From an uncultured Planctomycetota bacterium (GTDB lineage: Bacteria > Planctomycetota > Planctomycetia > Isosphaerales > Isosphaeraceae): a stretch of DNA of 64,000 nt. Within the stretch, counting starts at the first letter, position 1. Every line of letters starts with the position of its first letter. The stretch lies in NCBI GenBank assembly GCA_963845755.1, contig CAWJTV010000047.1, forward strand, positions 1 to 64,000, written 5' to 3'. Below the pieces are notes generated by a model, which was not told where the DNA came from, made no database searches, and saw only the letters and a program-made list of their open reading frames with translations. The position numbers and the translations under genes were made by a program. This document shows, in pieces, positions 1,962-23,829 of this stretch.

Positions 1962-2018
1962 AGCTAACGACCAAGTTCAGCGGCGGCCGAAGGCCATCCG
2001 GTGCAACGCCTCGTTAGA
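1962..2018 (-). other. attC site 3 (R'' box interrupted by IS110 copy 1)
   Basis: Plus strand AGCTAAC...CGTTAGA followed directly by the IS left end. Confidence 0.8.
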
Positions 2019-3796
2019 TACTATGTCCGGAGCGACCGGGCAGAAAAACGGTGAGCCGCTGACGGTAAGCTCCTCAGAAGAGGTCTTTCACCAAATCCCT
2101 CTCAACCACGGAGTCTCACCATGTCAGCGACCCACGACCTTCATCCTATCACCACCGGCTCGAACACGCTCTACCTCGCGTTCGAACTCGGCTGGACCTC
2201 CTGGAACCTCGCCTTCACCACCGCCATGGCCCGGAAGCCGCGGCTCCGCACCATCCCCGCTCGCGATCTCGATGCCCTTCAGCGCGAGATCCTCTGCGCA
2301 AGGCACCGCTTCGCCCTCCCCGACGACGCCTCTGTTCTCTCCTGCTACGAGGCCGGCCGCGACGGCTTCTGGCTCCATCGCGATCTCCAACACCACGCCA
2401 TCACCAACTGCGTCGTCAACGCCGCCCGCATCGAGGTCAATCGCCGCGCCCGCCGCGCCAAGAGCGATCGGCTCGACGTCGGCAAGCTCTTGACCATGTT
2501 GATCCGTTATCACGGCGGCGAGCACAAGCTCTGGAGCATCGTCCGCATCCCCACCCCCGACGATGAGGACCGCCGTCAGCCCCACCGCGAGCTGATCGCT
2601 GTCAAGGGCCAGCGCACCGAGCACTCCCATCGCATCAAGGGACTCCTCGCCAATCTCGGCCTTGACGTTGTGGTCGATGACCCGTTGCCGGAACGCCTCG
2701 GCCAGCTTCGCCAGTGGGACGGGAGGCCGGTCCCGGCCGAGCTGAGTGCCCGCATCGTCCGCGAGTGCGACCGCTGGACCTGGTCGACCGCCAGGCGCCG
2801 ACCTGGAGAACGCCCAGCGGCGAGCGTTCCGCGACGACGCGACGGCCGACGTCGAGACGCTGCGGCTGCTGCTGAACCTCAAGGCGATCGGTCCGATGAG
2901 CGCGACGCGGTTCGTCCGCGAGTTCTTCGGCTGGCGGCAGATCCAGAACCGCCGCGAGCTGGCGAGCCTCGCCGGTTTGGCCCCGACGCCGTACGCCAGT
3001 GGCGACAGTCAGCGCGAGCAAGGGATCAGCAAGGCGGGCAATCGCCGTCTGCGGTGGATGGCGGTGGAGATCGCCTGGGGCTGGCTGCACTGGCAGCCCC
3101 ACAGCGCCTTGAGCCAGTGGTATCAGCGTCGGTTCGGCGAGGGCAACGCGCGGCGCGCAAGGTGGGGATTGTGGCCCTGGCCCGCAAGTTATTGATTGCG
3201 CTGTGGCGATACCTGGAACAGGGCGAGGTGCCCGAGGGGGCGGAATTCACGCCGTGGGAGAAGAAGCTCAACGGCCGACTGCCTGCATCAGCAAAGGTCG
3301 AATGACCACTGAATTTGTTCATGTAATAACATTATTACTAAAATGAAACCAGGGGCCTTGAGGGAAGAATCACGAGCGTACCGGGCTGGAGGGGGCGACC
3401 GGGCGAGCACGTCTGGTTGGCGGCAGCCGACCGTTTGTTAGATGGGTTTGTCCCACACCTGGCTTCGGAGTCGTCCGCGGACGAACAGAGTAACGGGTGC
3501 TCGGTCCCTTAAGTGAGGATCGACACGGAGAGAAGGTGGTCGCGGCCTCCTGGCAGGCGCAACGCGCGTGACGAAGCCACCAGCCGCCGTCTCGGGAGTT
3601 CGTCGGCAAGGGCAAGGAGTGTGCCGATCGCAGGACCACCGACGTTGTCTGGAGAACGAGAAACAGCGTGTGTCCTGGCTCCCCGCAAACGGGGAGCCAG
3701 GACACACGCTGTCGGACTCGGAGCGATCGCTGTCCGCGCCCCGCGGGACGCCCAGAAAAAATCAGTCGGGGGGCTTGACTTCAGCGGGTTCATAGA
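2019..3796 (+). mobile_element. IS110-family element, copy 1, inserted in attC
   Basis: Near-identical to 4798-6579; AGA at both junctions; about 490 bp non-coding right end. Confidence 0.9.
2121..3305 (+). CDS. IS110-family (DEDD) transposase, frameshifted
   Basis: LAFELG, CYEAGRDGFWLHR, AKSDRLD, GLAPTPYASG, GISKAGN, ALARKL motifs; indels near 2780-2800 and 3160. Confidence 0.9.
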   Translation: MSATHDLHPITTGSNTLYLAFELGWTSWNLAFTTAMARKPRLRTIPARDLDALQREILCARHRFALPDDASVLSCYEAGRDGFWLHRDLQHHAITNCVVNAARIEVNRRARRAKSDRLDVGKLLTMLIRYHGGEHKLWSIVRIPTPDDEDRRQPHRELIAVKGQRTEHSHRIKGLLANLGLDVVVDDPLPERLGQLRQWDGRPVPAELSARIVRECDRWTWSTARRRPGERPAASVPRRRDGRRRDAAAAAEPQGDRSDERDAVRPRVLRLAADPEPPRAGEPRRFGPDAVRQWRQSARARDQQGGQSPSAVDGGGDRLGLAALAAPQRLEPVVSASVRRGQRAARKVGIVALARKLLIALWRYLEQGEVPEGAEFTPWEKKLNGRLPASAKVE

Positions 3797-4038
3797 AGAA
3801 CCCTTCCGCCCACCCGCCGGGTACAACACCCGCACTGGGTTGACAAGGACATGGCGAGACCTCGGCGACACACGGATCGCGGCCATGGCGCCATCACCGT
3901 CAACTCGGGAGACAGCATCCAAGACTCGGGGAAGGGCCAGAAGCGACGACGCTTCGCCGAAGCGTTCGCCGGACACCACGGCCAATTCGATTCGGCCGCC
4001 TTTCGCCCAGCATACTCGATCGCCTGTTCGGGGCTCAT
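3797..4038 (-). CDS. Cassette hypothetical protein (MSPEQAIEYAG...), frameshifted
   Basis: ATG at 4038; runs toward the R'' of attC3, which the IS has displaced. Confidence 0.35.
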
Positions 4039-4079
4039 GGTCGGAAGGCCGACTGACAAGGATGAGAGAACGACCTCAG

Positions 4080-4464
4080 TTACCACAACAACCGGACTGG
4101 ATACTGGACGAATAGACGATCCCGCCGAGATCAATTCCGCCCCCTCCACGATGGCTTGGGCTATCAACAACCGATCGAACGGGTCCTTATGGATGGGCGG
4201 TAGCCCCTCGAGCGCCAGCGAGTGCGGCGATGTCACGGGCAGGACCTGAAGACCGTTCGCCTGCTGCTGGGCGACGATATCGGGCAAGGGAACGCGCACA
4301 CTCAACTTGCCGAGCTGGGCCTTGATCAGGATCTCCCAGACGCTGACGACGCTCAGCCACACAGAGTTGGCGGGGTCGCGGAGAGCCGCCAACGCCACGG
4401 CCGAGAGCTGTGCCGGGTTGCTATCCCACCAGATAAAGGTATGGGTGTCGAGTAGCAGCCTCAT
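4080..4464 (-). CDS. vapC: PIN-domain (VapC-like) toxin
   Basis: MRLLLDTHTFIWW...HKDPFDRLLIAQA; true C-terminus DRLFVQYPVRLLW* (stop at 4080) after a frameshift. Confidence 0.85.
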
Positions 4465-4691
4465 GGCTGACCGATCCAGAAGTCATCCGGCAACGGCACG
4501 TCGAAGTCCGGGGCCGCCTGGATCGCACCGGCGTGGAGTCCCGCAACGCGCGGGCTTGCTCCTCCGCACGGGACAATCCGTGCGCGCGGAGTCGCGCCGT
4601 CAGTCAGGATCACTTCGCCGCCCGAAGCCGCCACCGCCAGTGCCTCCTCAAGTCGAGCCGGCAACTCCCGGATGTCGATGGTCGTAATCAT
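4461..4691 (-). CDS. Antitoxin (Phd/YefM-like with a DFDxPLPDDF tail)
   Basis: 76 aa, overlaps the toxin start; TATAAT -10 box at 4715-4720 upstream. Confidence 0.8.
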   Translation of the reverse strand: MITTIDIRELPARLEEALAVAASGGEVILTDGATPRARIVPCGGASPRVAGLHAGAIQAAPDFDVPLPDDFWIGQP

Positions 4692-4739
4692 TCGCCAGCC
4701 TCCTTTTGGCAGGCATTATACGCGAGCGCAGGCGCCGTC

Positions 4740-4797
4740 GTCTAACGACAAGTTCAGCGGCCCGCCGCAGGCGGGTCCGCTGGATCGCTTCGTGAGA
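4740..4797 (-). other. attC site 4 (R'' box interrupted by IS110 copy 2)
   Basis: Plus strand GTCTAAC...CGTGAGA followed by the IS left end. Confidence 0.85.
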
Positions 4798-6579
4798 TAC
4801 TATGTCCGGAGCGACCGGGCTGAAAACGGTGAGCCGCCGACGGTAAGCTCCTCAGAAGAGGTCTTTCGCCAAATCCCTCTCAACCTCGGAGTCTTACCAT
4901 GTCAGCGACCCACGACCTTCATCCTACCACCACCGGCTCGAACACGCTCTACCTCGCCTTCGACCTCGGCTGGACGTCCTGGAACCTCGCCTTCACCACC
5001 GCCATGGCCCAGAAGCCGCGGCTCCGCACTATCCCCGCTCGCGATCTCGAAGGTCTCCAGCGCGAGATCCTCCTCGCAAGGCACCGCTTCGCCCTCCCCG
5101 ACGACGCCTCTGTTCTCTCCTGCTACGAGGCCGGCCGCGACGGCTTCTGGCTCCATCGCGATCTCCAACACCACGCCATCACCAACTGCGTCGTCGACGC
5201 CGCCAGCATCGAGGTCAATCGCCGCGCTCGCTGCGCCAAGAGCGATCGGCTCGACGTCGGCAAGCTCTTGACCATGTTGATCCGTTATCACGGCGGCGAG
5301 CACAAGCTCTGGAGCGTCGTCCGCATCCCCACCCCCGACGATGAGGACCGCCGCCAGCCCCACCGCGAGCTGATCGCCGTCAAGGGCCAGCGCACCGAGC
5401 ACTCCAATCGCATCAAGGGACTCCTCGCCAATCTCGGCCTTGACGTCGTGGTCGATGACCAGTTGCCGGAACGTCTCGGCCAACTTCGCCAATGGGACGG
5501 GAGGCCGGTCCCGGCCGAGCTGAGTGCCCGCATCCTCCGCGAGTTCGACCGCTGGACACTGGTGGACCGCCAGGCGCGCGACCTGGAGAACGCCCAGCGG
5601 CGAGCGTTCCGCGACGACGCGACGGCTGACGTCGAGAAGCTGCGGCTGCTGCTGAACCTCAAGGCGATCGGTCCGATGAGCGCGACGCTGTTCGTCCGCG
5701 AGTTCTTCGGCTGGCGGCAGATCCAGAACCGCCGCGAGCTGGCGAGCCTCGCCGGTTTGGCCCCGACGCCGTACGCCAGCGGCGACAGTCAGCGCGAGCA
5801 AGGGATCAGCAAGGCGGGCAATCGCCGTCTGCGGTGGATGGCGGTGGAGATCGCCTGGGGCTGGCTGCACTGGCAGCCCAATAGCGCCTTGAGCCAGTGG
5901 TATCAGCGTCGGTTCGGCGAGGGCAACGCGCGGGCGCGGAAGATGGGGATTGTGGCCCTGGCCCGCAAGTTGTTGATCGCGCTGTGGCGATACCTGGAGA
6001 CAGGGCGAGGTGCCCGAGGGGGCGGAATTCACGCCGTGGGAGAAGAAGCTCAACGGCCGACTGCCTGCATCAGCAAAGGTCGGATGATCACTAAATTTGT
6101 TCATGTAATAACATTATTACTAACATGAAACCGGGGGCCTTGAGGGAAGAATCACGAGCGTACCGGGCTGGAGGGGGCGACCGGGCGAGCACGCTGGTCG
6201 GCGGCAGCCGACCGTGAGTTAGATGGGTTTGTCCCCACACCTGGCTTCGGAGTCGTCCGCGGACGAACAGAGTAACGGGTGCTCGGTCCCTTGAAGTGAG
6301 GATCGACACGGAGAGAAGGTGGTCGCGGACTCCTGGCAGGCGCGACGTGCGTGACGAAGCCACCAGCCGCCGTCTCGGGAGTTCGTCGGCAAGGGCAAGG
6401 AGTGTGCCGATCGCAGGACCACCGACGTTGTCTGGAGAACGAGAAACAGCGTGTGTCCTGGCTCCCCGCAAACGGGGAGCCAGGACACACGCTGTCGGAC
6501 TCGGAGCGATCGCTGTCCGCGCCCCGCAGGGCGCCCAGAAAAAATTAGTCGGGGGCCTTGACCTCAGCGTCTTCATAGA
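4798..6579 (+). mobile_element. IS110-family element, copy 2, inserted in attC
   Basis: Ends AGA|TACTATG ... TTCATAGA|; homologous to copy 1. Confidence 0.9.
4899..6087 (+). CDS. IS110-family transposase
   Basis: Same motifs as copy 1; single indel near 6000. Confidence 0.9.
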
Positions 6580-6644
6580 AGGCAGTAGCGGTACCCCGGG
6601 GGCCGGATGTAGAACGGCTCGTGCATCTGGCGCCCCCTCCTTCG

Positions 6645-9056
6645 GTCGGGTAAGGAGGTGAGGTTGCCCTCACCCCCTCCCCTCAGAACCGTACGTGCGC
6701 CTTGCGACGCATACGGCTCAAGCCTTCTCGAACGCCCCTCGCGGGACACAGCCCAGTCCGCCAGCCTTCCTCTTGCCGTGGATCTGCCGATGGCAGTGGG
6801 CGTGCAACAACTCCAAGTTGTCGTACGTCTCACCGCCGCCTCGATTGCGCCAGATCCGATGATGAATGTGCCAGGGTTCGTCTTCGGCCTGAAGAGGCTG
6901 CCCGCACATCACACATCGACCCCCTTGTCCCTTCCAGAGATACTCGATCCGGCCTCGACCTGCCAGGGTGTGCGTCAGCTTCCAGGCCGACCTCTCCTCC
7001 AGGTAGAGCTCCCACTCCGGATCGTAGGGGTTGGCCGCACTCCGGATCTTCCTCCACCGCAGGACCTTGACCCCGGCCGCTTTCATCAGCCGGATCCGTC
7101 CGCCGAGCCCGTGCTGTCACGGATTGTGCCCGTGAAGACCCAGTCTCGGTGGCCCTCGCGCTGGAAGTATTTCCTCTTGATCCACTTCCAGTTCTTCTCG
7201 GGATGGCGTCGGCGACACCATCTCATCAGCTTCCGGAAGATCCGATCGTCCACCGCATGGAAGATGCGCTTGCTGACCGCATAACGGTGGTACATGGTCC
7301 AGCCCTTGATCTGTTGATTCAAGCGCCGGATTAAGTCGCCCGCCGTCTTGCCGCCCGAGTCGTCGATCGTCGCCTGGATCTTGGCCAGGAACGTCTTGAT
7401 GCTCCGCTTCGATGGCTTGATCAAGACCTTGCCATTAGGGAAGCGTCGCACCGCCTGTCCCAGGAAATCGAAGCCGTCCTCAAGATGGGTGATCCTGGTC
7501 TTCTCGTGGGAGAGTTCGAGACCCCGCTTTCGTAAGAAGTGTTCCACGAGGGGCTGGACTTCACCTCGCAGGAGGACCCTTGATGTGCCGGTAATGATGA
7601 AGTCATCCGCATATCGGACCAGATGGACCTTGCCTCCCGCACGCCGTCGGCGTGTGTTGCTGAAGCGCCGCTCCAGCAACTCTTGCAACCCATCCAGGGC
7701 CCGGTTCGCCAGCGCGGGGGAGACGATCCCCCCTTGAGGTGTGCCTTCCGTGGTGGCGAACAGGACGTGCTTCTCCAGGAACCCGGCCTTCAGCCACTTC
7801 CGGAGCACCTCCTTGTCCATGGGGATATGGTCGATCAACCAACGATGGCTGATCCGATCAAAGCAGGCTTTGATATCCCCCTCCAAGATCCAGCTCGGAC
7901 CGGGCGGACCCCTGAGGATCTTGTGACACTCATCCAGGGCATCGGCACAGCAGCGTTCCAGTCGAAAGCCGTAGGAATGGCCGTCGGCGAGGGACTCTGC
8001 GATGGGATCGAGGCCCAGCAGGTAGAGGGCCTGCATGGCTCGATCGGCCATGGTAGGAATCCCTAAACCACGTCGCTGGCCGTTGCTCTTGGGAATGTAA
8101 ACCCTGCGGAGCGGTTGCGGCCGATAGCCGTGCCGACGCAGGGTGCTGAAGGCCGCCGACTTGACCTCCGGCGTGTTCCAGAGGATTCCGTCCACGCCGG
8201 GGGTCCGCGCACCCGAATTACTGACGACTCGCAAGATGGCCAGAGCCCGGCCACTGTACGAGTGGGTGAGCAGGTAGACCAGGGCTTTGGCTTTGTTCCA
8301 CCTGCCCTCCCGGACTGCCTTTACGATACGCGCCTGGAGCCGACGGACCGTGCGCCAGACTTTCTTCCAGGAAATGGAATTCCAGTCGGGCGCATGGCCG
8401 GGGACCGCACCAACAGGCGTTGCCGCCTGTGCCTTATCTGCTTTGCCCCCTGAGTCAGTTGGCCGAGGTTCTCTCGTAACGGAAGACCCGGGGGAAGTCG
8501 GCTCCCTTTCGGGCGGGGTGATGTCGCCTGTCGGCTCAACCCCTATCCGACCGGTTAGTGGCCGGCGTTCGCTTCCTCCCTCGTCCTGTACCCGCCGCCC
8601 CATGGGCTCCTCTTGCGAGTCGCCTACCCTCGCGGGGAGGACGACGGGCTTACCACGTTCCGACGATGTGCCAAGGTGGGGAGGGTCGCCGCTCTTCGCC
8701 GGTGGTACGGCATCTGCGCCAGGGGAGTTAGGAGCCCCCGGACCTGACCACGTGCCCTTTTGGCCCAAGCGTGACAGCATCTTCCGCTTGTTCTCAGTAA
8801 CGACGTTTATCGCGGCTTCACTTTACGTTGACCCGTCCACCCGATCCTGGTCCCCGACCGCGTTGATGCTGGCAGTCGCGGCGTCGGCTCGCGCTCCGGC
8901 CGCCCTCCCGAGGGAGGAGGATACGTTGTGCCGGGGGCTTGGCACCCCTCCGTTGCCGGAGGCGCACTCCCCGGTGGGATACTGCTGGCAGAACAGCAGG
9001 TGCTGTCGCCCTCTCCGAGGTCGCAGCACAGTCACATCGGCGACTTCGTGTCGCAC
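6645..9056 (-). mobile_element. Group II intron copy A
   Basis: 5' end GTGCG, 3' end ...CCTTACCCGAC; domain V GAGCCGTATGCG-GCAA-CGTACGGTTC; RT ORF. Confidence 0.95.
6718..8435 (-). CDS. ltrA: Group II intron RT/maturase with C-terminal HNH endonuclease (frameshift near 7100)
   Basis: NSGARTPGVDG, RGLGIPT, EGDIKACFD, GTPQGG, YADD, CxxC...HIHH...N...H..CH; start uncertain. Confidence 0.9.
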
Positions 9057-9113
9057 CCTAACGCCCAAGATCAGGGGCCCGCGCAGCGGGTCCGCTGCAT
9101 CGCCTCGTTAGAC
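9057..9113 (-). other. attC site 5 (last base of R' displaced by intron A)
   Basis: GTCTAAC...GTTAGG|intron|C. Confidence 0.9.
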
Positions 9114-9886
9114 ATGAATTCCGGCTGGCGCCGTTCCAGAACGATGATCCTCAGTTGCTCGACTGTAAGCATCGGTTTGCTTCTGTGGATCATTCGGTGA
9201 CAGTTCGAGCAGACGATAGCCAACTCGCTCAGCCGAGTCTTGTGCCTTTCGGTAAGGCGGGAGAGAGGAGTCCGATGATGGCACTCGGCGAAGCTTTTGC
9301 CCAGAAGACCGTAGACGTGCTCGAAATCGAAGTCACATGATTCGCAAAGCAAGGCACCGGTCCGTTCAAGCACTATCTCCTTCTTTCGGCGTACCGCTCG
9401 GGATTTCCGCTCCTTCAATCGGTGAAGCCGGAACTGTACGCCCCCTTCCTCGAATCCTTCTAGGTCGGTTGCTGCCAGATCTCGGTAATCGACTGTTGCA
9501 GCGTCTTCAACCAAGAGGTGCAGGCCATGATACTCGCTCACGTCGACCGCCCCGACACGGTGCGAGACGTGAAGCTTGCCGCTCTTCAGCGTGAGGTTCC
9601 ACCGTTGGGAGCCATTGACCTTTGAAGCGGTCATCGTGCCTTCGACAAGGAGATCGCGAACTACCGAGTACGGAACAACAAAGTGGTCCCGCGGGTCGTC
9701 TGAATGCGTCCGGTAGACAACGAGATTCGGTCCCTCGCGACCACGACGCCTGGCTTCTTCGATACGATGGCGCCATGTTCCCAGAAACACCGCGAACCAG
9801 CCGGTGTCGGCGTTCGCCATTACGACGTACTCACCTCGCGATTCGAGGTCTTGTCTCAACAGATCCGCGATACTTGCCGTCTGCAT
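9071..9886 (-). CDS. HNH endonuclease (McrA-like C-terminal domain) cassette
   Basis: CESCDFDF...ECHHRTPL...VCSNCHRMIH. Confidence 0.8.
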   Translation of the reverse strand: MQTASIADLLRQDLESRGEYVVMANADTGWFAVFLGTWRHRIEEARRRGREGPNLVVYRTHSDDPRDHFVVPYSVVRDLLVEGTMTASKVNGSQRWNLTLKSGKLHVSHRVGAVDVSEYHGLHLLVEDAATVDYRDLAATDLEGFEEGGVQFRLHRLKERKSRAVRRKKEIVLERTGALLCESCDFDFEHVYGLLGKSFAECHHRTPLSRLTERHKTRLSELAIVCSNCHRMIHRSKPMLTVEQLRIIVLERRQPEFMSNEAMQRTRCAGP

Positions 9887-9989
9887 TCTTACGACGCCTC
9901 GAGGGTGATTGATGTGGTTAAAGCGCCGCATGAATCCATGCGATTATAGTATTGTATTGTTGACTGCCGGCTCACGCCTCCTCAGACGC

Positions 9990-10175
9990 TCATGGGGGCG
10001 GGATTTGGAGGTCGCGGCAGATCTTCCGAGCCAGGTACTCGTAGATCTCGGTGTGCCGAGGGACGGCCGATGTCGCGTTCGTGGCCGGGTTCACGTAAAT
10101 GCTGTGCTTGCCGCCCTCGCGGAGCAGCCGGCAGCCATGTGCCTGCAGGTGCCTGATGAGGTCGTGGCGCTTCAT
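9990..10175 (-). CDS. hicA: HicA-family toxin
   Basis: REGGKHSIY...VPRHTEI...ICRDL. Confidence 0.9.
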   Translation of the reverse strand: MKRHDLIRHLQAHGCRLLREGGKHSIYVNPATNATSAVPRHTEIYEYLARKICRDLQIPPP

Positions 10176-10390
10176 ACCATCAGCTCGAACGGCTCGCGGG
10201 TCACGGCTTGACCCCGCAGCGACTCCTCGGCGAGTTCACGATTGCTCTCGATGACCAGAGTGACGGCCTCGCGGAGGTTCTCTCGGGCCTCCTCGAGCGT
10301 CGCACCCTGAGTATTGGCCCCGGGCAGCTCCTCGACGAAGGCGACGTAGCCTCCTTCCGGCACCTGGACGAAGACGGCGGTCAATTGCAT
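10172..10390 (-). CDS. hicB: HicB-family antitoxin
   Basis: YVAFVEELPGANTQGATLEEARENLREA; promoter-like TTGTCA-17-CATGAT at 10473-10445. Confidence 0.9.
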   Translation of the reverse strand: MQLTAVFVQVPEGGYVAFVEELPGANTQGATLEEARENLREAVTLVIESNRELAEESLRGQAVTREPFELMV

Positions 10391-10483
10391 TCGGCCCTCC
10401 CGGCCTCGCATGGCGTTGGTTCGGCTGCAGCGAGACCTGCTACCATCATGTCCTCACCGCGCGACGATGACAACAGCGTGGCG

Positions 10484-13438: not shown

Positions 13439-14502
13439 CGGGATGGCCTCGGCCTGACGGAACCACTCCCCTATGCTACACAGTCCGCGGCAGTGCAGCA
13501 ACTCGTCGATCGGCTTCCGGGCTTCCGGCTCACTGCTCGCTGGGTCGGGTAAGGAGGTGAGGTTGCCCTCACCCCCTCCCCTCAGAACCGTACGTGCGCC
13601 TTGCGACGCATACGGCTCAAGCCTTCTCGAACGCCCCTCGCGGGACACAGCCCAGTCCGCCAGCCTTCCTCTTGCCGTGGATCTGCCGATGGCAGTGGGC
13701 GTGCAACAACTCCAAGTTGTCGTACGTCTCACCGCCGCCTCGATTGCGCCAGATCCGATGATGAATGTGCCAGGGTTCGTCTTCGGCCTGAAGAGGCTGC
13801 CCGCACATCACACATCGACCCCCTTGTCCCTTCCAGAGATACTCGATCCGGCCTCGACCTGCCAGGGTGTGCGTCAGCTTCCAGGCCGACCTCTCCTCCA
13901 GGTAGAGCTCCCACTCCGGATCGTAGGGGTTGGTCGCACTCCGGATCTTCCTCCACCGCAGGACCTTGACCCCGGCCGCTTTCATCAGCCGGATCCGTCG
14001 CGCCGAGCCCGTGCTGTCACGGATTGTGCCCGTGAAGACCCAGTCTCGGTGGCCCTCGCGCTGGAAGTATTTCCTCTTGATCCACTTCCAGTTCTTCTCG
14101 GGATGGCGTCGGCGACACCATCTCATCAGCTTCCGGAAGATCCGATCGTCCACCGCATGGAAGATGCGCTTACTGACCGCATAACGGTGGTACATGGTCC
14201 AGCCCTTGATCTGTTGATTCAAGCGCCGGATTAAGTCGCCCGCCGTCTTGCCGCCCGAGTCGTCGATCGTCGCCTGGATCTTGGCCAGGAACGTCTTGAT
14301 GCTCCGCTTCGATGGCTTGATCAAGACCTTGCCATTAGGGAAGCGTCGCACCGCCTGTCCCAGGAAATCGAAGCCGTCCTCAAGATGGGTGATCCTGGTC
14401 TTCTCGTGGGAGAGTTCGAGACCCCGCTTTCGTAAGAAGTGTTCCACGAGGGGCTGGACTTCACCTCGCAGGAGGACCCTTGATGTGCCGGTAATGATGA
14501 AG

Positions 14503-16265
14503 TCATCCGCATATCGGACCAGATGGACCTTGCCTCCCGCACGCCGTCGGCGTGTGTTGCTCAAAGCGCCGCTCCAGCAACTCTTGCAACCCATCCAGGG
14601 CCCGGTTCGCCAGCGCGGGGAGATCACGCCCCCAACAATGTTGCAAAGAACCCTGTTGGGGGCCTCCCTCAAAAGGGGACGGACTGATCCGATACACGAT
14701 GCGGACCTCCTGCTCGTCGATCTCGACCTTCTTCACCAAAGCCCGAACGATCGCCCGTCGCGTGGCCCAGTCCGGCTCTTGCAACTCGTGGGAAACGCGT
14801 CTCGCGAACTCCTCCAACTGGCCGATCACCAGCCGCAGTTCGGCTTCCTGGTTGGCCTCGTCAATCTGCTGCCGACACTCATCCTCCAGTTTGGCCAGGC
14901 GCTGCGCGCTGCCAAGATCCTCGGCTCGAACTCCGACTTGTTAAGTAATCCCTCGCCGTAGGCATCGATCAATCGAGCGATCATCTTTTTTAGATTCGCA
15001 ATCAATTTGTTGAGATGCTTCACCTCGCGGTCTGGGCCTGTCTCCGGCCCGTGCAGCCGCCGTTCGTACTCCACTCGAACCCGTTCGGGCTCGGACAAGA
15101 GATGACGCACATCTTCCCAGACGGCGGCGTCCAAGACATCCGTGCGGACCTGCTTGTTCCAACACAGTCGCTGGCCACCGAAACGATAGGCGTCGGAGCC
15201 GGTGCAGCGGTAGTAGGCGTAGGGGACCTTCCCCTTGGCCGAGGCCCGGCTCACCGGCTTGCCGTAGCAGCCGTAGCCGCACCGTTTGCAGACAACTAAC
15301 CCCTGGAGGAGATAGCGGTCGCCACGGAGCCGTTCGCGCCGGCGTTGCCGGTTCTCCTCGATTTGAGCTTGAACCATCCCGAAGAGTTCCTCGCTCACCA
15401 AACCGGGGACATCGATGAAGATTTGTTCTTGCGTGGATGTATCGACCCGAGAGACAGGACGCCGGGGCTGCTCAGGACGGCCGCGTTGCGGCGCAGCCGC
15501 TTCGGCTTGAGGGCGCCCGCCGCGTCTTGCCGAAACCGGCCGTCCCCTTGTAGGCAGGGTTCCTGAGATACGACCAGATCACCGAGCGGTCCCAGGCCGA
15601 TTTGCCCGTCCGCGTGGGGACGCCGTCGCGTTGCAGACGTCGGCAAACCTCACCGATCGAGCATCGTTCCTGGCCGACCCACCCGAAGATCTTCCGCACG
15701 ATCCGCGCCTCGTCGGCCACGACCTGATAACGCGCCGCGCCGCCGCCCTCATGCTTGCCGATGTAGCGGTAGCCATACGGCGCACCGCTGAGCACGTTGA
15801 CCGAGCCGTGGCGGGCGGCGTACTGCTTGCCTCGGCGACACCGCTCCATGATCTTGGCACGCTCGTATTCAGCGATCATGCCCTGGACCTGCACAAGCAG
15901 GTTCTCTTCGGGTCCGTGACCCGGGGATTGCGCAGGAAGACGACCTCAACGCCGCACCGGGCCAGTTCCTCGAGTATCAAAACCTGGTAGGCATATTTGC
16001 GCGAAAGTCGATCGGGATCGAGAATGTAGAGGCGATCGATGGTCCCAGCAGCGGCCTGGTCCCGAAGTCGTTCGAGGCCCGGGCGGACCAGGGTATCCCC
16101 GGTGTAGCCATCGTCCACAAAGCACAGCTCGGGGGAGCATACCAAGCCGTCGCTCGCGACGCGCTGCCTGATCGCCTCAAGCTGGCTGGCGATCGTGTCC
16201 TCCTTGGACTGTTGGTCCCCGGAGACCCGGCCATAGGTCCCCACACAGAGATCGTGATTGAGCAT
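14503..16265 (-). CDS. Large serine recombinase (resolvase + recombinase + Zn ribbon + coiled coil), frameshifted
   Basis: YGRVSG, DDGYTG, RPGL, DRLSR, AEYER, APYGY, LRNPAYKG, YLLQGLVVCKRCG, YYRC; four ORF pieces. Confidence 0.88.
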
Positions 16266-16640
16266 GGCTGGTCAAGCTCCTCTGGCCTTTGATCGGAGTC
16301 CCTGCATCGTTGTGGTGGCCTGCTCGTTGTCGTGAGATCGCGATCGCGACCGTTCCAGGTGGCGAGAAACGACCGGGATCAAGGCCTGGTATGCCGGCGC
16401 GATCACCTCATCCTGAAACCGGGTGAACTCGAAATGGCGGGTGACGGGAGGGCTCAGGGCTGACCTCCGTTGAGATGTAATCATGTTGACTCATCCTCTC
16501 CAAGACCGCGGCTGTCAGCCTGCCTTGGACGGGGATCGAGCCCGGGCTGCCATCCTTGCCCATACTTCGGTCGGAGCCGCGATCTGGAAATGACAGAGTC
16601 AGGGATCAGGGACAGTTTTGCAACATTGTTGGGGGCGTGA
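14624..16640 (-). mobile_element. Minimal large-serine-recombinase element, 2017 bp, with perfect 24-bp terminal inverted repeats
   Basis: TCACGCCCCCAACAATGTTGCAAA at 14624-14647 and its reverse complement at 16617-16640; flanks rejoin to the RT sequence seen in the other intron copies. Confidence 0.9.
16272..16484 (-). CDS. Small hypothetical protein upstream of the recombinase
   Basis: 70-aa ORF with GAGGA upstream, ending 7 bp before the recombinase ATG. Confidence 0.5.
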   Translation of the reverse strand: MITSQRRSALSPPVTRHFEFTRFQDEVIAPAYQALIPVVSRHLERSRSRSHDNEQATTTMQGLRSKARGA

Positions 16641-17973
16641 CGATCCCCCCTTGAGGTGTGCCTTCCGTGGTGGCGAACAGGACGTGCTTCTCCAGGAACC
16701 CGGCCTTCAGCCACTTCCGGAGCACCTCCTTGTCCATGGGGATATGGTCGATCAACCAACGATGGCTGATCCGATCAAAGCAGGCTTTGATATCCCCCTC
16801 CAAGATCCAGCTCGGACCGGGCGGACCCCTGAGGATCTTGTGACACTCATCCAGGGCATCGGCACAGCAGCGTTCCAGTCGAAAGCCGTAGGAATGGCCG
16901 TCGGCGAGGGACTCTGCGATGGGATCGAGGCCCAGCAGGTAGAGGGCCTGCATGGCTCGATCGGCCATGGTAGGAATCCCTAAACCACGTCGCTGGCCGT
17001 TGCTCTTGGGAATGTAAACCCTGCGGAGCGGTTGCGGCCGATAGCCGTGCCGACGCAGGGTGCTGAAGGCCGCCGACTTGACCTCCGGCGTGTTCCAGAG
17101 GATTCCGTCCACGCCGGGGGTCCTGCGCACCCGAATTACTGACGACTCGCAAGATGGCCAGAGCCCGGCCACTGTACGAGTGGGTGAGCAGGTAGACCAG
17201 GGCTTTGGCTTTGTTCCACCTGCCCTCCCGGACTGCCTTTACGATACGCGCCTGGAGCCGACGGACCGTGCGCCAGACTTTCTTCCAGGAAATGGAATTC
17301 CAGTCGGGCGCGTGGCCGGGGACCGCACCAACAGGCGTTGCCGCCTGTGCCTTATCTGCTTTGCCCCCTGAGTCAGTTGGCCGAGGTTCTCTCGTAACGG
17401 AAGACCCGGGGGAAGTCGGCTCCCTTTCGGGCGGGGTGATGTCGCCTGTCGGCTCAACCCCTATCCGACCGGTTAGTGGCCGGCGTTCGCTTCCTCCCTC
17501 GTCCTGTACCCGCCGCCCCATGGGCTCCTCTTGCGAGTCGCCTACCCTCGCGGGGAGGACGACGGGCTTACCACGTTCCGCCGATGTGCCAAGTGGGGAG
17601 GGTCGCCGCTCTTCGCCGGTGGTACGGCATCTGCGCCGGGGGAGTTAGGAGCCCCCGGACCTGACCACGTGCCCTTTTGGCCCAAGCGTGACAGCATCTT
17701 CCGCTTGTTCTCAGTAACGACGTTTATCGCGGCTTCACTTTACGTTGACCCGTCCACCCGATCCTGGTCCCCGACCGCGTTGATGCTGGCAGTCGCGGCG
17801 TCGGCTCGCGCTCCGGCCGCCCTCCCGAGGGAGGAGGATACGTTGTGCCGGGGGCTTGGCACCCCTCCGTTGCCGGAGGCGCACTCCCCGGTGGGATACT
17901 GCTGGCAGAACAGCAGGTGCTGTCGCCCTCTCCGAGGTCGCAGCACAGTCACATCGGCGACTTCGTGTCGCAC

Positions 17974-20961: not shown

Positions 20962-21019
20962 GCCTAACGCCTAAATTCAGCGGCCCGCGCTGCGGGTCCG
21001 CTGCAATGCTTCGTTAGAC
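20962..21019 (-). other. attC site 8
   Basis: GTCTAAC...GTTAGGC. Confidence 0.9.
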
Positions 21020-22268
21020 CGTTCCCTGTGATACTCAAGGAGCTTTTCAGCAGGCTGATCATGCGGATCACGCGGGAGCCGAATCTTACGCCCGTCAAAC
21101 TCGGCATAGTTCGAAGCCGCAAGCACTGGGTCAACAATAATGGTCATCGTCGCTGTATCGACGGTGAGAAGGCCCAGGTCGAAAAGAGTGTGTAGATCGG
21201 TGCGGAGAAGAAGCCCGTTTCGCACGTGGTTGGTCGCCGGCCCTTGATACGGGATAATATGTGCTGCCTCCAAGACCTGTTCCACGGTACAGCCAGAGAA
21301 GCAACAGCTCGAATCATATGCACGGAGTAGCGCTTCGCGAAACTCCGATTGGCCCCGGCGCTGAACGATGAGAGCGAGGTTCCGGGCGCGCTCATCGTCG
21401 ATTACCTGCGGATCGAACGGCAATACAGGGCTTCCGGCCTCGTCGCCAGCGAGTGAATTGCGATCGTCGTCCGGACTAATCGCGTCGATGTATTCCACGA
21501 CGGCGAGCTCATGCCGGGCGATGCTCCGGTGGTCGGGTGCAATGCCGAGCCTCAAGACTTGATCGAGGTACGTCCGATGGGCATGCCGGATCTCGTTCCA
21601 CTCGCCGAGAGTATCCATCCGGGGTGTGTAATACCCATTTCGGGATGGGGTACGTCGATAACGCGGGTACGATTGTTCGTCCCATCGCCAAGACACCAGG
21701 CGCGACCAGTCAACAGCCTGGACATCGGGATCGGTCGTGACCCAAACCCTGTCGGATTCCAGAGTCAGAACGATAAGCCTCCCAGCGAACAGGCGCAGTG
21801 CTTTCCCTTGAAGTGGACGAGGCTCCATTCTGGCTTCCGACTGCGAATGTACCGGAGCGACTCCGCAAAAATAGAAAACATAGTCCTGCGAACGTCGGGA
21901 TCCGACGTGATCGCGTCTAGCTTCTGCGCGATGGTCAACGTCGTGGATTGGGAGTCTGCGAGTCGGTTGAACGGGGAGATCGAACGTTCCAGGTACAGCC
22001 GCAACTCCTCAGCCACGAGCTCACGCAGGTCCTCCCCGTCTCCAGTGAAGTCGAATACGCCCTCCTTCCCGAGTCGTGAGGAGACGGCAAGCTTTAACCT
22101 GGTTGTCGCGTGGCGGCTGGAGCGTGCGGCGCGGAGGATTCGATTGGAACCCGGCCCCCGGCGGGGTGGGCCGGCGAAGAAGGCCCAGCCGTCGGGATTT
22201 GAACGAGGCTCCGCAATGAGATCCGGGTACTCCATCGCTAGAAAATCGCGAATCTCATCCGGCGTCAT
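20977..22268 (-). CDS. HNH endonuclease cassette with unknown N-terminal region (frameshift near 21790)
   Basis: RRGQSEFREALL...CCFSG...LEAAHI...NGLLLRTDLHTLFD; ORFs 21765..22268 and 20977..21828 overlap. Confidence 0.8.
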
Positions 22269-23628: not shown

Positions 23629-23829
23629 AAGACGCCCACCTTGCTCGACCGAGTCCGTGAAGTTGTCTGGAAGTTGCATTACAGCATTCGCACGAGGGTT
23701 GCCTACCTCCAGTGGATCAAGCGGCTCATCCTCGTTCATGGCGAGCGGCGTCTTCTCGAAGTGGGCGAAGGCGAGTTCGAAGACTCCCTGAGCCATCGGG
23801 CGTCCGAGGGAAACGTCGCGGCCTCGACG
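23629..23829 (+). pseudogene. intI: Integron integrase N-terminal relic
   Basis: LLDRVREVVWKLHYSIRTRVAYLQWIKRLILVHG...LSHRASEGNVAAST matches the IntI N-terminal SAM-like domain; similarity stops before the catalytic domain. Confidence 0.8.

Follow-up and report, generated by a model that had tools for sequence, protein, structure and literature searches.

The Integron Array and Its Insertion Sequences

The stretch of DNA described here (the window, 64,000 nucleotides) is the start of contig C47 of an uncultured member of the Planctomycetota with a genome of 14.3 Mb and a GC content of 64%. Its bases 1 to approximately 23,500 are occupied by an integron cassette array, the genes of which lie on the minus strand and the attC recombination sites of which are short. 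Two copies of an insertion sequence (IS) of the IS110 family are inserted in this array, and this element, its predicted guide RNA and its relation to attC are the subject of this report. The boxes of attC are named R', L'' and R'' as is customary; the integron integrase IntI crosses over at G|TT of R'. The IS copies, their transposase genes and the attC sites occupied by them are located as follows.

2016-3796, plus strand: IS copy 1, 1,781 bp including the left AG core; the right core AG is at 3797-3798
4795-6579, plus strand: IS copy 2, 1,785 bp; the right core AG is at 6580-6581
2121-3305, plus strand: transposase gene of copy 1, with three single-base gaps against copy 2 (near 2780, 2799 and 3152) and the middle of the protein out of frame
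4899-6087 (end approximate), plus strand: transposase gene of copy 2, with D22, E77, D116, D119 and S294 present; NF033542 matches with 159.5 bits (cut-off 140)
1962-2019, minus strand: attC occupied by copy 1; R' at 1962-1968, R'' (2013-2019) composed of GTT and of AGAT from the IS end
4740-4798, minus strand: attC occupied by copy 2; R'' (4792-4798) with GTG instead of GTT

The two copies are 96.1% identical. Their junctions read GTTAGA-TACTATG and CATAGA-AGAAC for copy 1 and GTGAGA-TACTATG and CATAGA-AGGCA for copy 2, exactly as given in the first-pass annotation of this DNA, and junctions and gene strands confirm its claim that both copies share one point of attC and lie antisense to the cassettes. 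The occupied box is indeed R'', as is evident from the adjoining 8-nt L'' box, from the cassette open reading frames (ORFs), which stop there, and from a remnant of the integrase gene intI, which points away from the array. The two attC sites that carry an IS fold end to end.

Five further near copies are present in the genome, three on contig C39 (one of them just the right 357 bp) and two on C18; in addition, C5 carries an IS relic and C36 a left-end match of 54 bp. Both C18 copies are internally deleted, and one of them has no left end. The deletion of approximately 166 bp is common to both (locus L139, G000:C18 80436-85028); the end of the transposase and the first RNA stem are gone, and a second guide version is retained. 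Contigs of two separate soil sequencing runs cross an attC-IS left junction (records 11 and 25).

Ends of the Element and Recombination Core

The element is composed of AGATACT-ATG...CAT-AGA, that is, of 7 and 3 nt beyond the terminal ATG and CAT, without target duplication, which is the rule for the IS1111 group (PMC11187229, excerpt). Its terminal repeat is CTATG/CATAG only, with a length of 5 bp; inside ATG/CAT, 4 of 10 bases agree, and sub-terminal inverted repeats of 11-13 bp, typical of the IS1111 group (7-17 bp in the excerpt of PMC11208160), are absent. A -35-like TTGACT is found near the right end of copy 1 (3774-3780, plus strand; TTGACC near 6558 in copy 2). In the predicted circle it would be placed 17 nt before GATACT of the left end, and the two may constitute a junction promoter.

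Two readings fit the junctions, namely, an AGA core, which the first-pass annotation had proposed, or an AG core with an element starting with AGATACT and ending with AGA. Among 184 homologous loci, in which end patterns located 108 left and 131 right ends, AG follows 119 of the 122 distinct right junctions of the clade, AG having been no part of the search pattern, and the bases 5' of the left end are freely variable. Among the 71 loci with both ends, 8 have nearby an IS-free copy of the target that is compatible with the AG core, and none has one compatible with AGA. All seven right ends in the genome read CATAGA-AG-[A/G], and the restored R'' equals the cassette's own R' at position 6 in six of seven genome copies under AG and in two of seven under AGA (baseline 23/35; copy 2 was read by eye across an adjacent intron). 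From the empty-site copies, the right-junction AG and the agreement with R', it is concluded that the target is cut at GTT|AG in an empty site GTT|AG-R, with a 2-nt AG as the core shared by donor and target and with the element boundaries 2016-3796 and 4795-6579.

A 3-nt core with the target GTTAGA|AG-R can hardly be maintained against these data. In its favor, AGA is present at both junctions, the free attC at 1426-1480 reads GTTAGAAG, and an extra AGA is seen at some right junctions (L337 and one of two ends in L350), so that events in that register may occur. Yet besides failing in all 71 loci of the empty-site comparison, it requires AA after GTTAG in all seven genome copies, while AA follows in 1 of 51 free sites, and the donor guide reads AGAAG, which is present only in an AG-core circle. 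The empty sites are consequently GTTAGAAC and GTGAGGCA and not GTTAGAAGAAC and GTGAGAAGGCA; the boxes as first drawn were 3 nt too long. Of the two restored R'' boxes, TTCTAAC was right by coincidence, and TTCTCAC has to be replaced by GCCTCAC. That attC stays nearly whole holds, albeit with one or two outer bases replaced rather than the outermost base of R'' only. Since the left end begins with AGAT, the left junction GTTAGAT equals the consensus R'' box, by which attC is kept whole.

No free attC other than that at 1426-1480 has GTTAGAAG, which may have been left as an AGA footprint when an element was excised in the past, or may be nothing more than the end of the GNAT gene. At right junctions of L337 (3562), L350 (254 and 2396) and L287, the element is separated from the core by one or two additional AGA, which suggests occasional shifted-register events. 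An extra A at the junction as explanation of three AA flanks suits the frame of one copy and breaks that of another. The seven flanking cassette ends are without an IS-free allele within the genome, the junction-proximal 190 nt of the copy-1 cassette had no match in other genomes among 121 of the order, and neither a circle joint nor an empty-site joint was found among the joints of four soil sequencing runs.

The Predicted Bridge/Seek RNA

The noncoding region 3' of the transposase gene comprises approximately 490 nt, that on the 5' side approximately 105 nt; a long downstream region is characteristic of IS1111. Conserved blocks follow each other in the order of stem, right target guide ending with C[T/G], inner hairpin, CCG, left target guide ending with AG, closing stem, and two donor guides. 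The predicted positions in the window, all on the plus strand, are given below.

3393-3540: RNA core of copy 1; right target guide 3405-3414, inner hairpin, left target guide 3435-3441 (TTGTT-AG)
near 3487-3493 and 3528-3535: donor guides of copy 1
6175-6323: RNA core of copy 2; right target guide 6187-6195, left target guide 6216-6222 (GAGTT-AG)
near 6269-6275 and 6311-6318: donor guides of copy 2

The earlier assumption of RNA guidance is supported by guides that covary with the targets of relatives. The five bases before AG of the left guide agree with the left flank at 4.54 of 5 positions (26 distinct guides from 49 loci with usable flank), while shuffles give 1.87 +/- 0.21 with a highest value of 2.69 in 5,000. 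For the right guide and the right flank the value is 3.64 of 5 against 1.84 +/- 0.15 in shuffles (45 distinct guides, 58 loci with a clean short hairpin, L247 set aside). All 12 elements with the left end AGATGC have GCAT in the right donor guide, compared with 2 of 28 elements with AGATAC. Guides for both target strands and for the donor, as expected of the IS110 family, are thus present as judged from covariation. In the consensus fold both target guides are situated in one internal loop, with 8 of 41 pairs compensatory. The top-strand guide comes first, which is the IS1111 order (PMC11187229, excerpt). The genome carries two guide versions and one mixed copy.

A first candidate for the right target guide, approximately 81 nt 5' of the left guide, proved wrong, the guide being located just before the inner hairpin. 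In the 3' region past the guide RNA, a near-perfect 50-bp palindrome is found at 3659-3712 and 6443-6495; relatives have other palindromes at that place, and L003 contains an additional 270-bp insert.

Transposase Lineage and Relatives

The transposase contains the DEDD N-terminal domain and the Transposase_20 C-terminal domain with SG motif of the IS110 family (NF033542, PF02371); the Pfam N-terminal model gave no match at E 0.001. Positions D/E22, E77, D116, D119 and S294 are conserved, and we take them to have the catalytic roles of the corresponding residues of IS621. The gaps in the copy 1 gene may be either decay or long-read error. In copy 2, an extra base near 6000, which may likewise be of either origin, shifts the tail only and is absent from contigs of three of the four soil runs. 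Nearest named relatives are found in Planctomycetota, and a profile search across the phylum matched 4 of 401 genomes at E 1e-60.

Comparison of phylogeny and insertion point with ISKpn4/ISPst6-type loci of the described IS1111-attC group (ISKpn4, ISPst6, ISPa21, ISPa25) revealed no correspondence. Identity to ISKpn4/ISPst6-type transposases is 20-24% over 155-206 amino acids, with seven of eight reference proteins matching at E below 0.01; within that group, ISKpn4 and ISPst6 are 86% identical to each other and ISPa25 is 46% identical. In a quick tree of 111 rows, to which only loci with a left end and at least 300 amino acids of open frame were admitted, the 96 rows of the window clade group first with two alphaproteobacterial proteins (41-44%) and next with ISSso6 (26%, the nearest named row), apart from IS4321 and the ISKpn4 group (13 reference rows, long branches). 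The ISKpn4/ISPst6-type loci used for comparison were gathered by a right-end motif from the supplement of PMC11187229 (excerpt), the N-terminus of one protein matching the printed ISKpn4 sequence. Of 17 left junctions located for these elements, 14 are cut at TTGA[AG]|; the modal position is 6 nt before GTT of R'' (57/124), at a distance of 9 nt from the cut in the window, and the ISKpn4 site is stated to be shared by ISPst6 and ISPa25 (PMC11187229, excerpt). Their cut at the edge of L'' and spacer separates R'' from L'', while the element of the window cuts inside R'' at GTT|AG and rebuilds the box. From the low identity, the lack of long sub-terminal repeats and the displaced cut, a transposase lineage unrelated to the described group and an independent route to attC are deduced from the sequences. 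Shared with that group are the RNA-guided DEDD recombinase with 3' noncoding region, the top-strand guide preceding the bottom-strand guide, the antisense insertion and the R''-side half of attC. The guides differ from those of ISKpn4 when compared by eye.

IS621 (PMC11208160, excerpt), which together with ISCro4 is among the distant structural relatives in the PDB, likewise belongs to the IS110 family (NF033542) and has a two-loop RNA with left and right guides for target and donor and a 2-nt core. The element of the window differs in its downstream RNA, reversed guide order, AG core and attC target instead of REP. Named ISfinder elements of the wider clade are, as judged by the motif, at least ISAzs35, ISMno20, ISRel9, ISMno25 and ISGdi7, which in the phylogeny table of PMC11208160 (excerpt) share E-A-G-x-D-G-F-W (DGFW) with the window clade; the next group comprises ISSso6, ISEc45 and ISPye17, ISSso6 being 26% identical. 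The DGFW motif is absent from the excerpted source data of PMC11187229. In the literature searched, which did not extend to subscription papers and preprint supplements, no paper naming these five elements, no attC targeting by them, and no attC-targeting IS outside the IS1111-attC group were found. Nested among pseudomonad sequences is an ISKpn4/ISPst6-type element in attC (L065) whose contig bears the label Kocuria marina; it may represent transfer or contamination.

The clade spans 45-90% identity and many phyla. Two automatic attC scorers were too crude for distant homologues, the second also passing 31 of 400 random GTTAG[AG] sites; homologue sites were classed by eye and by ORF direction. 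The same R'' site is used by L001, L005, L142 (90% amino acid identity) and L334 (74% nucleotide identity); L330 and L331 are repeats of junctions already counted. A sister, L003 (81% identical), is nested among GTT-guided elements and has the guide TATTC and the target TATTC. Most remaining clade members target short repeats. Separate branches of 54-60% identity (L159, L163, L245, L251, L282 and L285, from Chloroflexota and metagenome contigs) lie at GTT|AG of attC-like sites. In five of these six, same-strand genes end before the site or start just after the IS, and by eye they appear to insert at R' in the top strand, the classing into R' and R'' being made with L269, L279, L295 and L298 left aside. 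At L301-L311 (G351:C1 487863-495937), five tandem copies of a 44%-identical transposase are spaced by approximately 1.75 kb.

Choice of attC

In this genome, the element is specific for R'' of attC, as had been claimed, and antisense insertion into attC is a trait of the IS1111-attC group: all five intact left ends follow attC GTT or GTG. The C5 relic also follows attC, and the R'' insertions span four separate arrays. The check for copies at other sites yielded only the C36 stub. A pattern search identified 58 attC sites in the genome, and of 1,593 GTTAG[AG] words 50 are in attC context, so that five of five left ends at attC exceed chance.

The guides explain this distribution in part. On a 10-point score of guide-target match devised for this work, the mean is 7.1 for free R'' and 6.7 for R', yet R' is used by the IS in none of the 58 sites. 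AA follows GTTAG in 3 of 7 occupied and in 1 of 53 free sites (p 0.004, post hoc). Trapping of copies at poorly matched sites is without support (right-flank scores 2.4 versus 2.9, p 0.18), and a search for a second match between the RNA region and attC gave nothing beyond chance 7-8-mers. The guide sets the cut point and is too short and too loosely matched to choose attC alone. Considering the weak match of the occupied sites and approximately 21,000 equal sites outside attC, a further determinant of attC choice must contribute, for which the folding of attC, the accessibility of the strand or the loss of insertions elsewhere may be considered.

The Neighbouring Group II Intron

A group II intron is located next to copy 2, separated from it by only 65 bp.

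6645-9056, minus strand: group II intron on the cassette strand, which follows GTTAGG of attC R' and encodes a protein with RT, maturase and HNH-type C-terminus
8727-8732: EBS1-like CCUAAC in a hairpin loop of the intron (intron position 325)

Of seven near-identical intron 5' ends in the genome, six follow GTTAG[GA] of attC R' on the cassette strand, in keeping with EBS1, and one follows another intron copy; the placement of the intron at R' by the first-pass annotation is therewith confirmed. The IIB1 intron UHB.I2 (PMC7923331, excerpt) is likewise found just after attC in cassette direction, while the IIC-attC introns (PMC3001079, excerpt) enter the bottom strand, unlike the intron of the window. 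IS and intron read the same conserved GTTAG word at opposite ends of a symmetric site.

The segment between intron and copy 2 (6580-6644) contains a ribosome-binding-like site, an ATG and 15 codons; flanked by parasites on both sides, it may represent a very small cassette or the remainder of a deleted one. At 13544-17973, a serine-recombinase element, whose Recombinase and Zn-ribbon domains lie at 14826-16265, interrupts another intron copy, and a second copy is inserted exactly at the 5' boundary of the split one (17973/17974), resulting in a tandem or twin intron. A second, related intron family (82% at the 5' end; G000 contigs C13, C14, C24, C38, C43 and C45) follows a different conserved word, which ends with CCCGCACT..TGATG, mostly near contig ends.

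Weighing of the Explanations

With high probability, the element in the window is an IS110-family member that is guided by a bridge/seek RNA, whose transposase lineage is unrelated to that of the described IS1111-attC group, and which was retargeted to attC by a change of its guides. Several points weigh against this. The five occupied sites score only 5-6.5 of 10, a range in which 21,200 non-attC sites reach at least 5 and 4,496 reach 6.5; the diverged C36 stub is not at attC, and close relatives with GTT-type guides (L002, L004, L230, L191, L332 and L333) occupy non-attC sites. Both transposase genes of the window are frameshifted as assembled. The tree is a quick run with long-branch warnings, the known cut point derives from ISKpn4/ISPst6-type loci, the covariation nulls ignore relatedness, and the single-sequence RNA fold is no better than shuffles (z -0.84). 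RNA, circle and transposition are predictions from the sequence. That the element is instead a plain member of the IS1111-attC group, or took its guide RNA like ISPa25, would agree with strand and attC half as described for that group (PMC3001079, excerpt) and with the 3' noncoding region, the terminal extensions and the guide order of IS1111 (PMC11187229, excerpt). Such membership is highly improbable and has largely been refuted by the 20-24% identity on a separate branch, the cut point 9 nt apart, the 5-bp terminal repeat and an RNA scaffold common to non-attC relatives in its own clade.

A loose GTT|AG-specific element might have no true preference for attC, insertions in arrays rebuilding the site at little cost and others being purged or lying in unassembled parts; RNA guidance would be retained, and just the source of specificity would differ. 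The weak guide match, the non-attC insertions of relatives and a genome completeness of 88% are in line with this, as is the single full intI left in the genome, with which the arrays may be under little selection. Five of five intact left ends and the C5 relic at R'' in four arrays, versus thousands of equal sites, many of them presumably intergenic, speak against it, together with the about equally scoring but unused R', and a loose element is therefore regarded as possible though unlikely. The first-pass annotation had furthermore regarded IS and intron as partitioning one recombination site. Division of attC through competition or co-evolution would be compatible with the bottom-strand R'' position of the IS in 5 of 5 cases, the top-strand R' position of the intron in 6 of 7 5' ends, and the lack of a shared site. 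As 5 attC sites carry the IS and 6 the intron, approximately 0.5 of the 58 would be expected to carry both by chance, and the observed zero is uninformative; sister IS lineages appear to use R', and the choice of each parasite is explained by its own guide or EBS1. A partition as a relationship is thus unsupported, and division in this sense is very unlikely.

Proposed Mechanism and Implications

As read from the sequences, the element has the ends AGAT[A/G]C[T/C]ATG and CATAGA and recombines via the 2-nt AG core of donor and target. Covariation reveals a right target guide, a hairpin, a left target guide and two donor guides in the predicted 3' RNA. By analogy with IS621 and ISEc11, the element would circularize, the joint, predicted as CATAGA-AG-ATACTATG, forming a promoter, and the complex of transposase and RNA would insert the circle into NNGTT|AG-R of the attC bottom strand. 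With the consensus R'' restored at the junction, attC would stay whole and the IS would come to lie inside the cassette, between gene and attC. IntI might still use such an attC and would then carry the IS along with the cassette. A more far-reaching and speculative proposal, to which we assign a low probability, is that an AG-core IS110 lineage is pre-adapted to integrons and was retargeted more than once to GTT|AG (R'' in planctomycetes, R' in Chloroflexota-like hosts), always leaving a working site. The element would then be cassette cargo moved by IntI, and it would find attC also by reading the folded or single-stranded site beyond the 7-nt guide match.

RNA-guided IS elements have reached integron attC at least twice, with a site-preserving cut here and a site-splitting cut in the described group. 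The principle of an RNA-guided IS at attC has already been published; new are the independent lineage, the different, site-preserving cut point and the readable guide RNA. Given its unusually readable ends and guides, the clade provides a collection of AG-core bridge recombinases that have been reprogrammed in nature. Whether the structure of target DNA matters to IS110 recombinases can be tested directly by means of the discrepancy between guide match and actual specificity.

Further Features of the Arrays

Two further features of the array are listed here.

23641-23829, plus strand: remnant of the integron integrase gene intI, covering model positions 1-63 of 315, at the array head
3797-4739, minus strand: cassette body between the IS copies, with a small antitoxin-like ORF, a PIN-domain ORF and further sequence

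The full intI is encoded on contig C3, and additional arrays are found on C3, C18, C39 and C41. GC skew around the arrays gave an inconsistent strand signal. Cassette contents comprise a PIN toxin-antitoxin-like pair (3790-4691), an HNH nuclease (9071-9931, Pfam), a second HNH-like ORF (10172-10411, by eye) and a HicB-like protein (20977-21828); several reading frames of array cassettes appear shifted.

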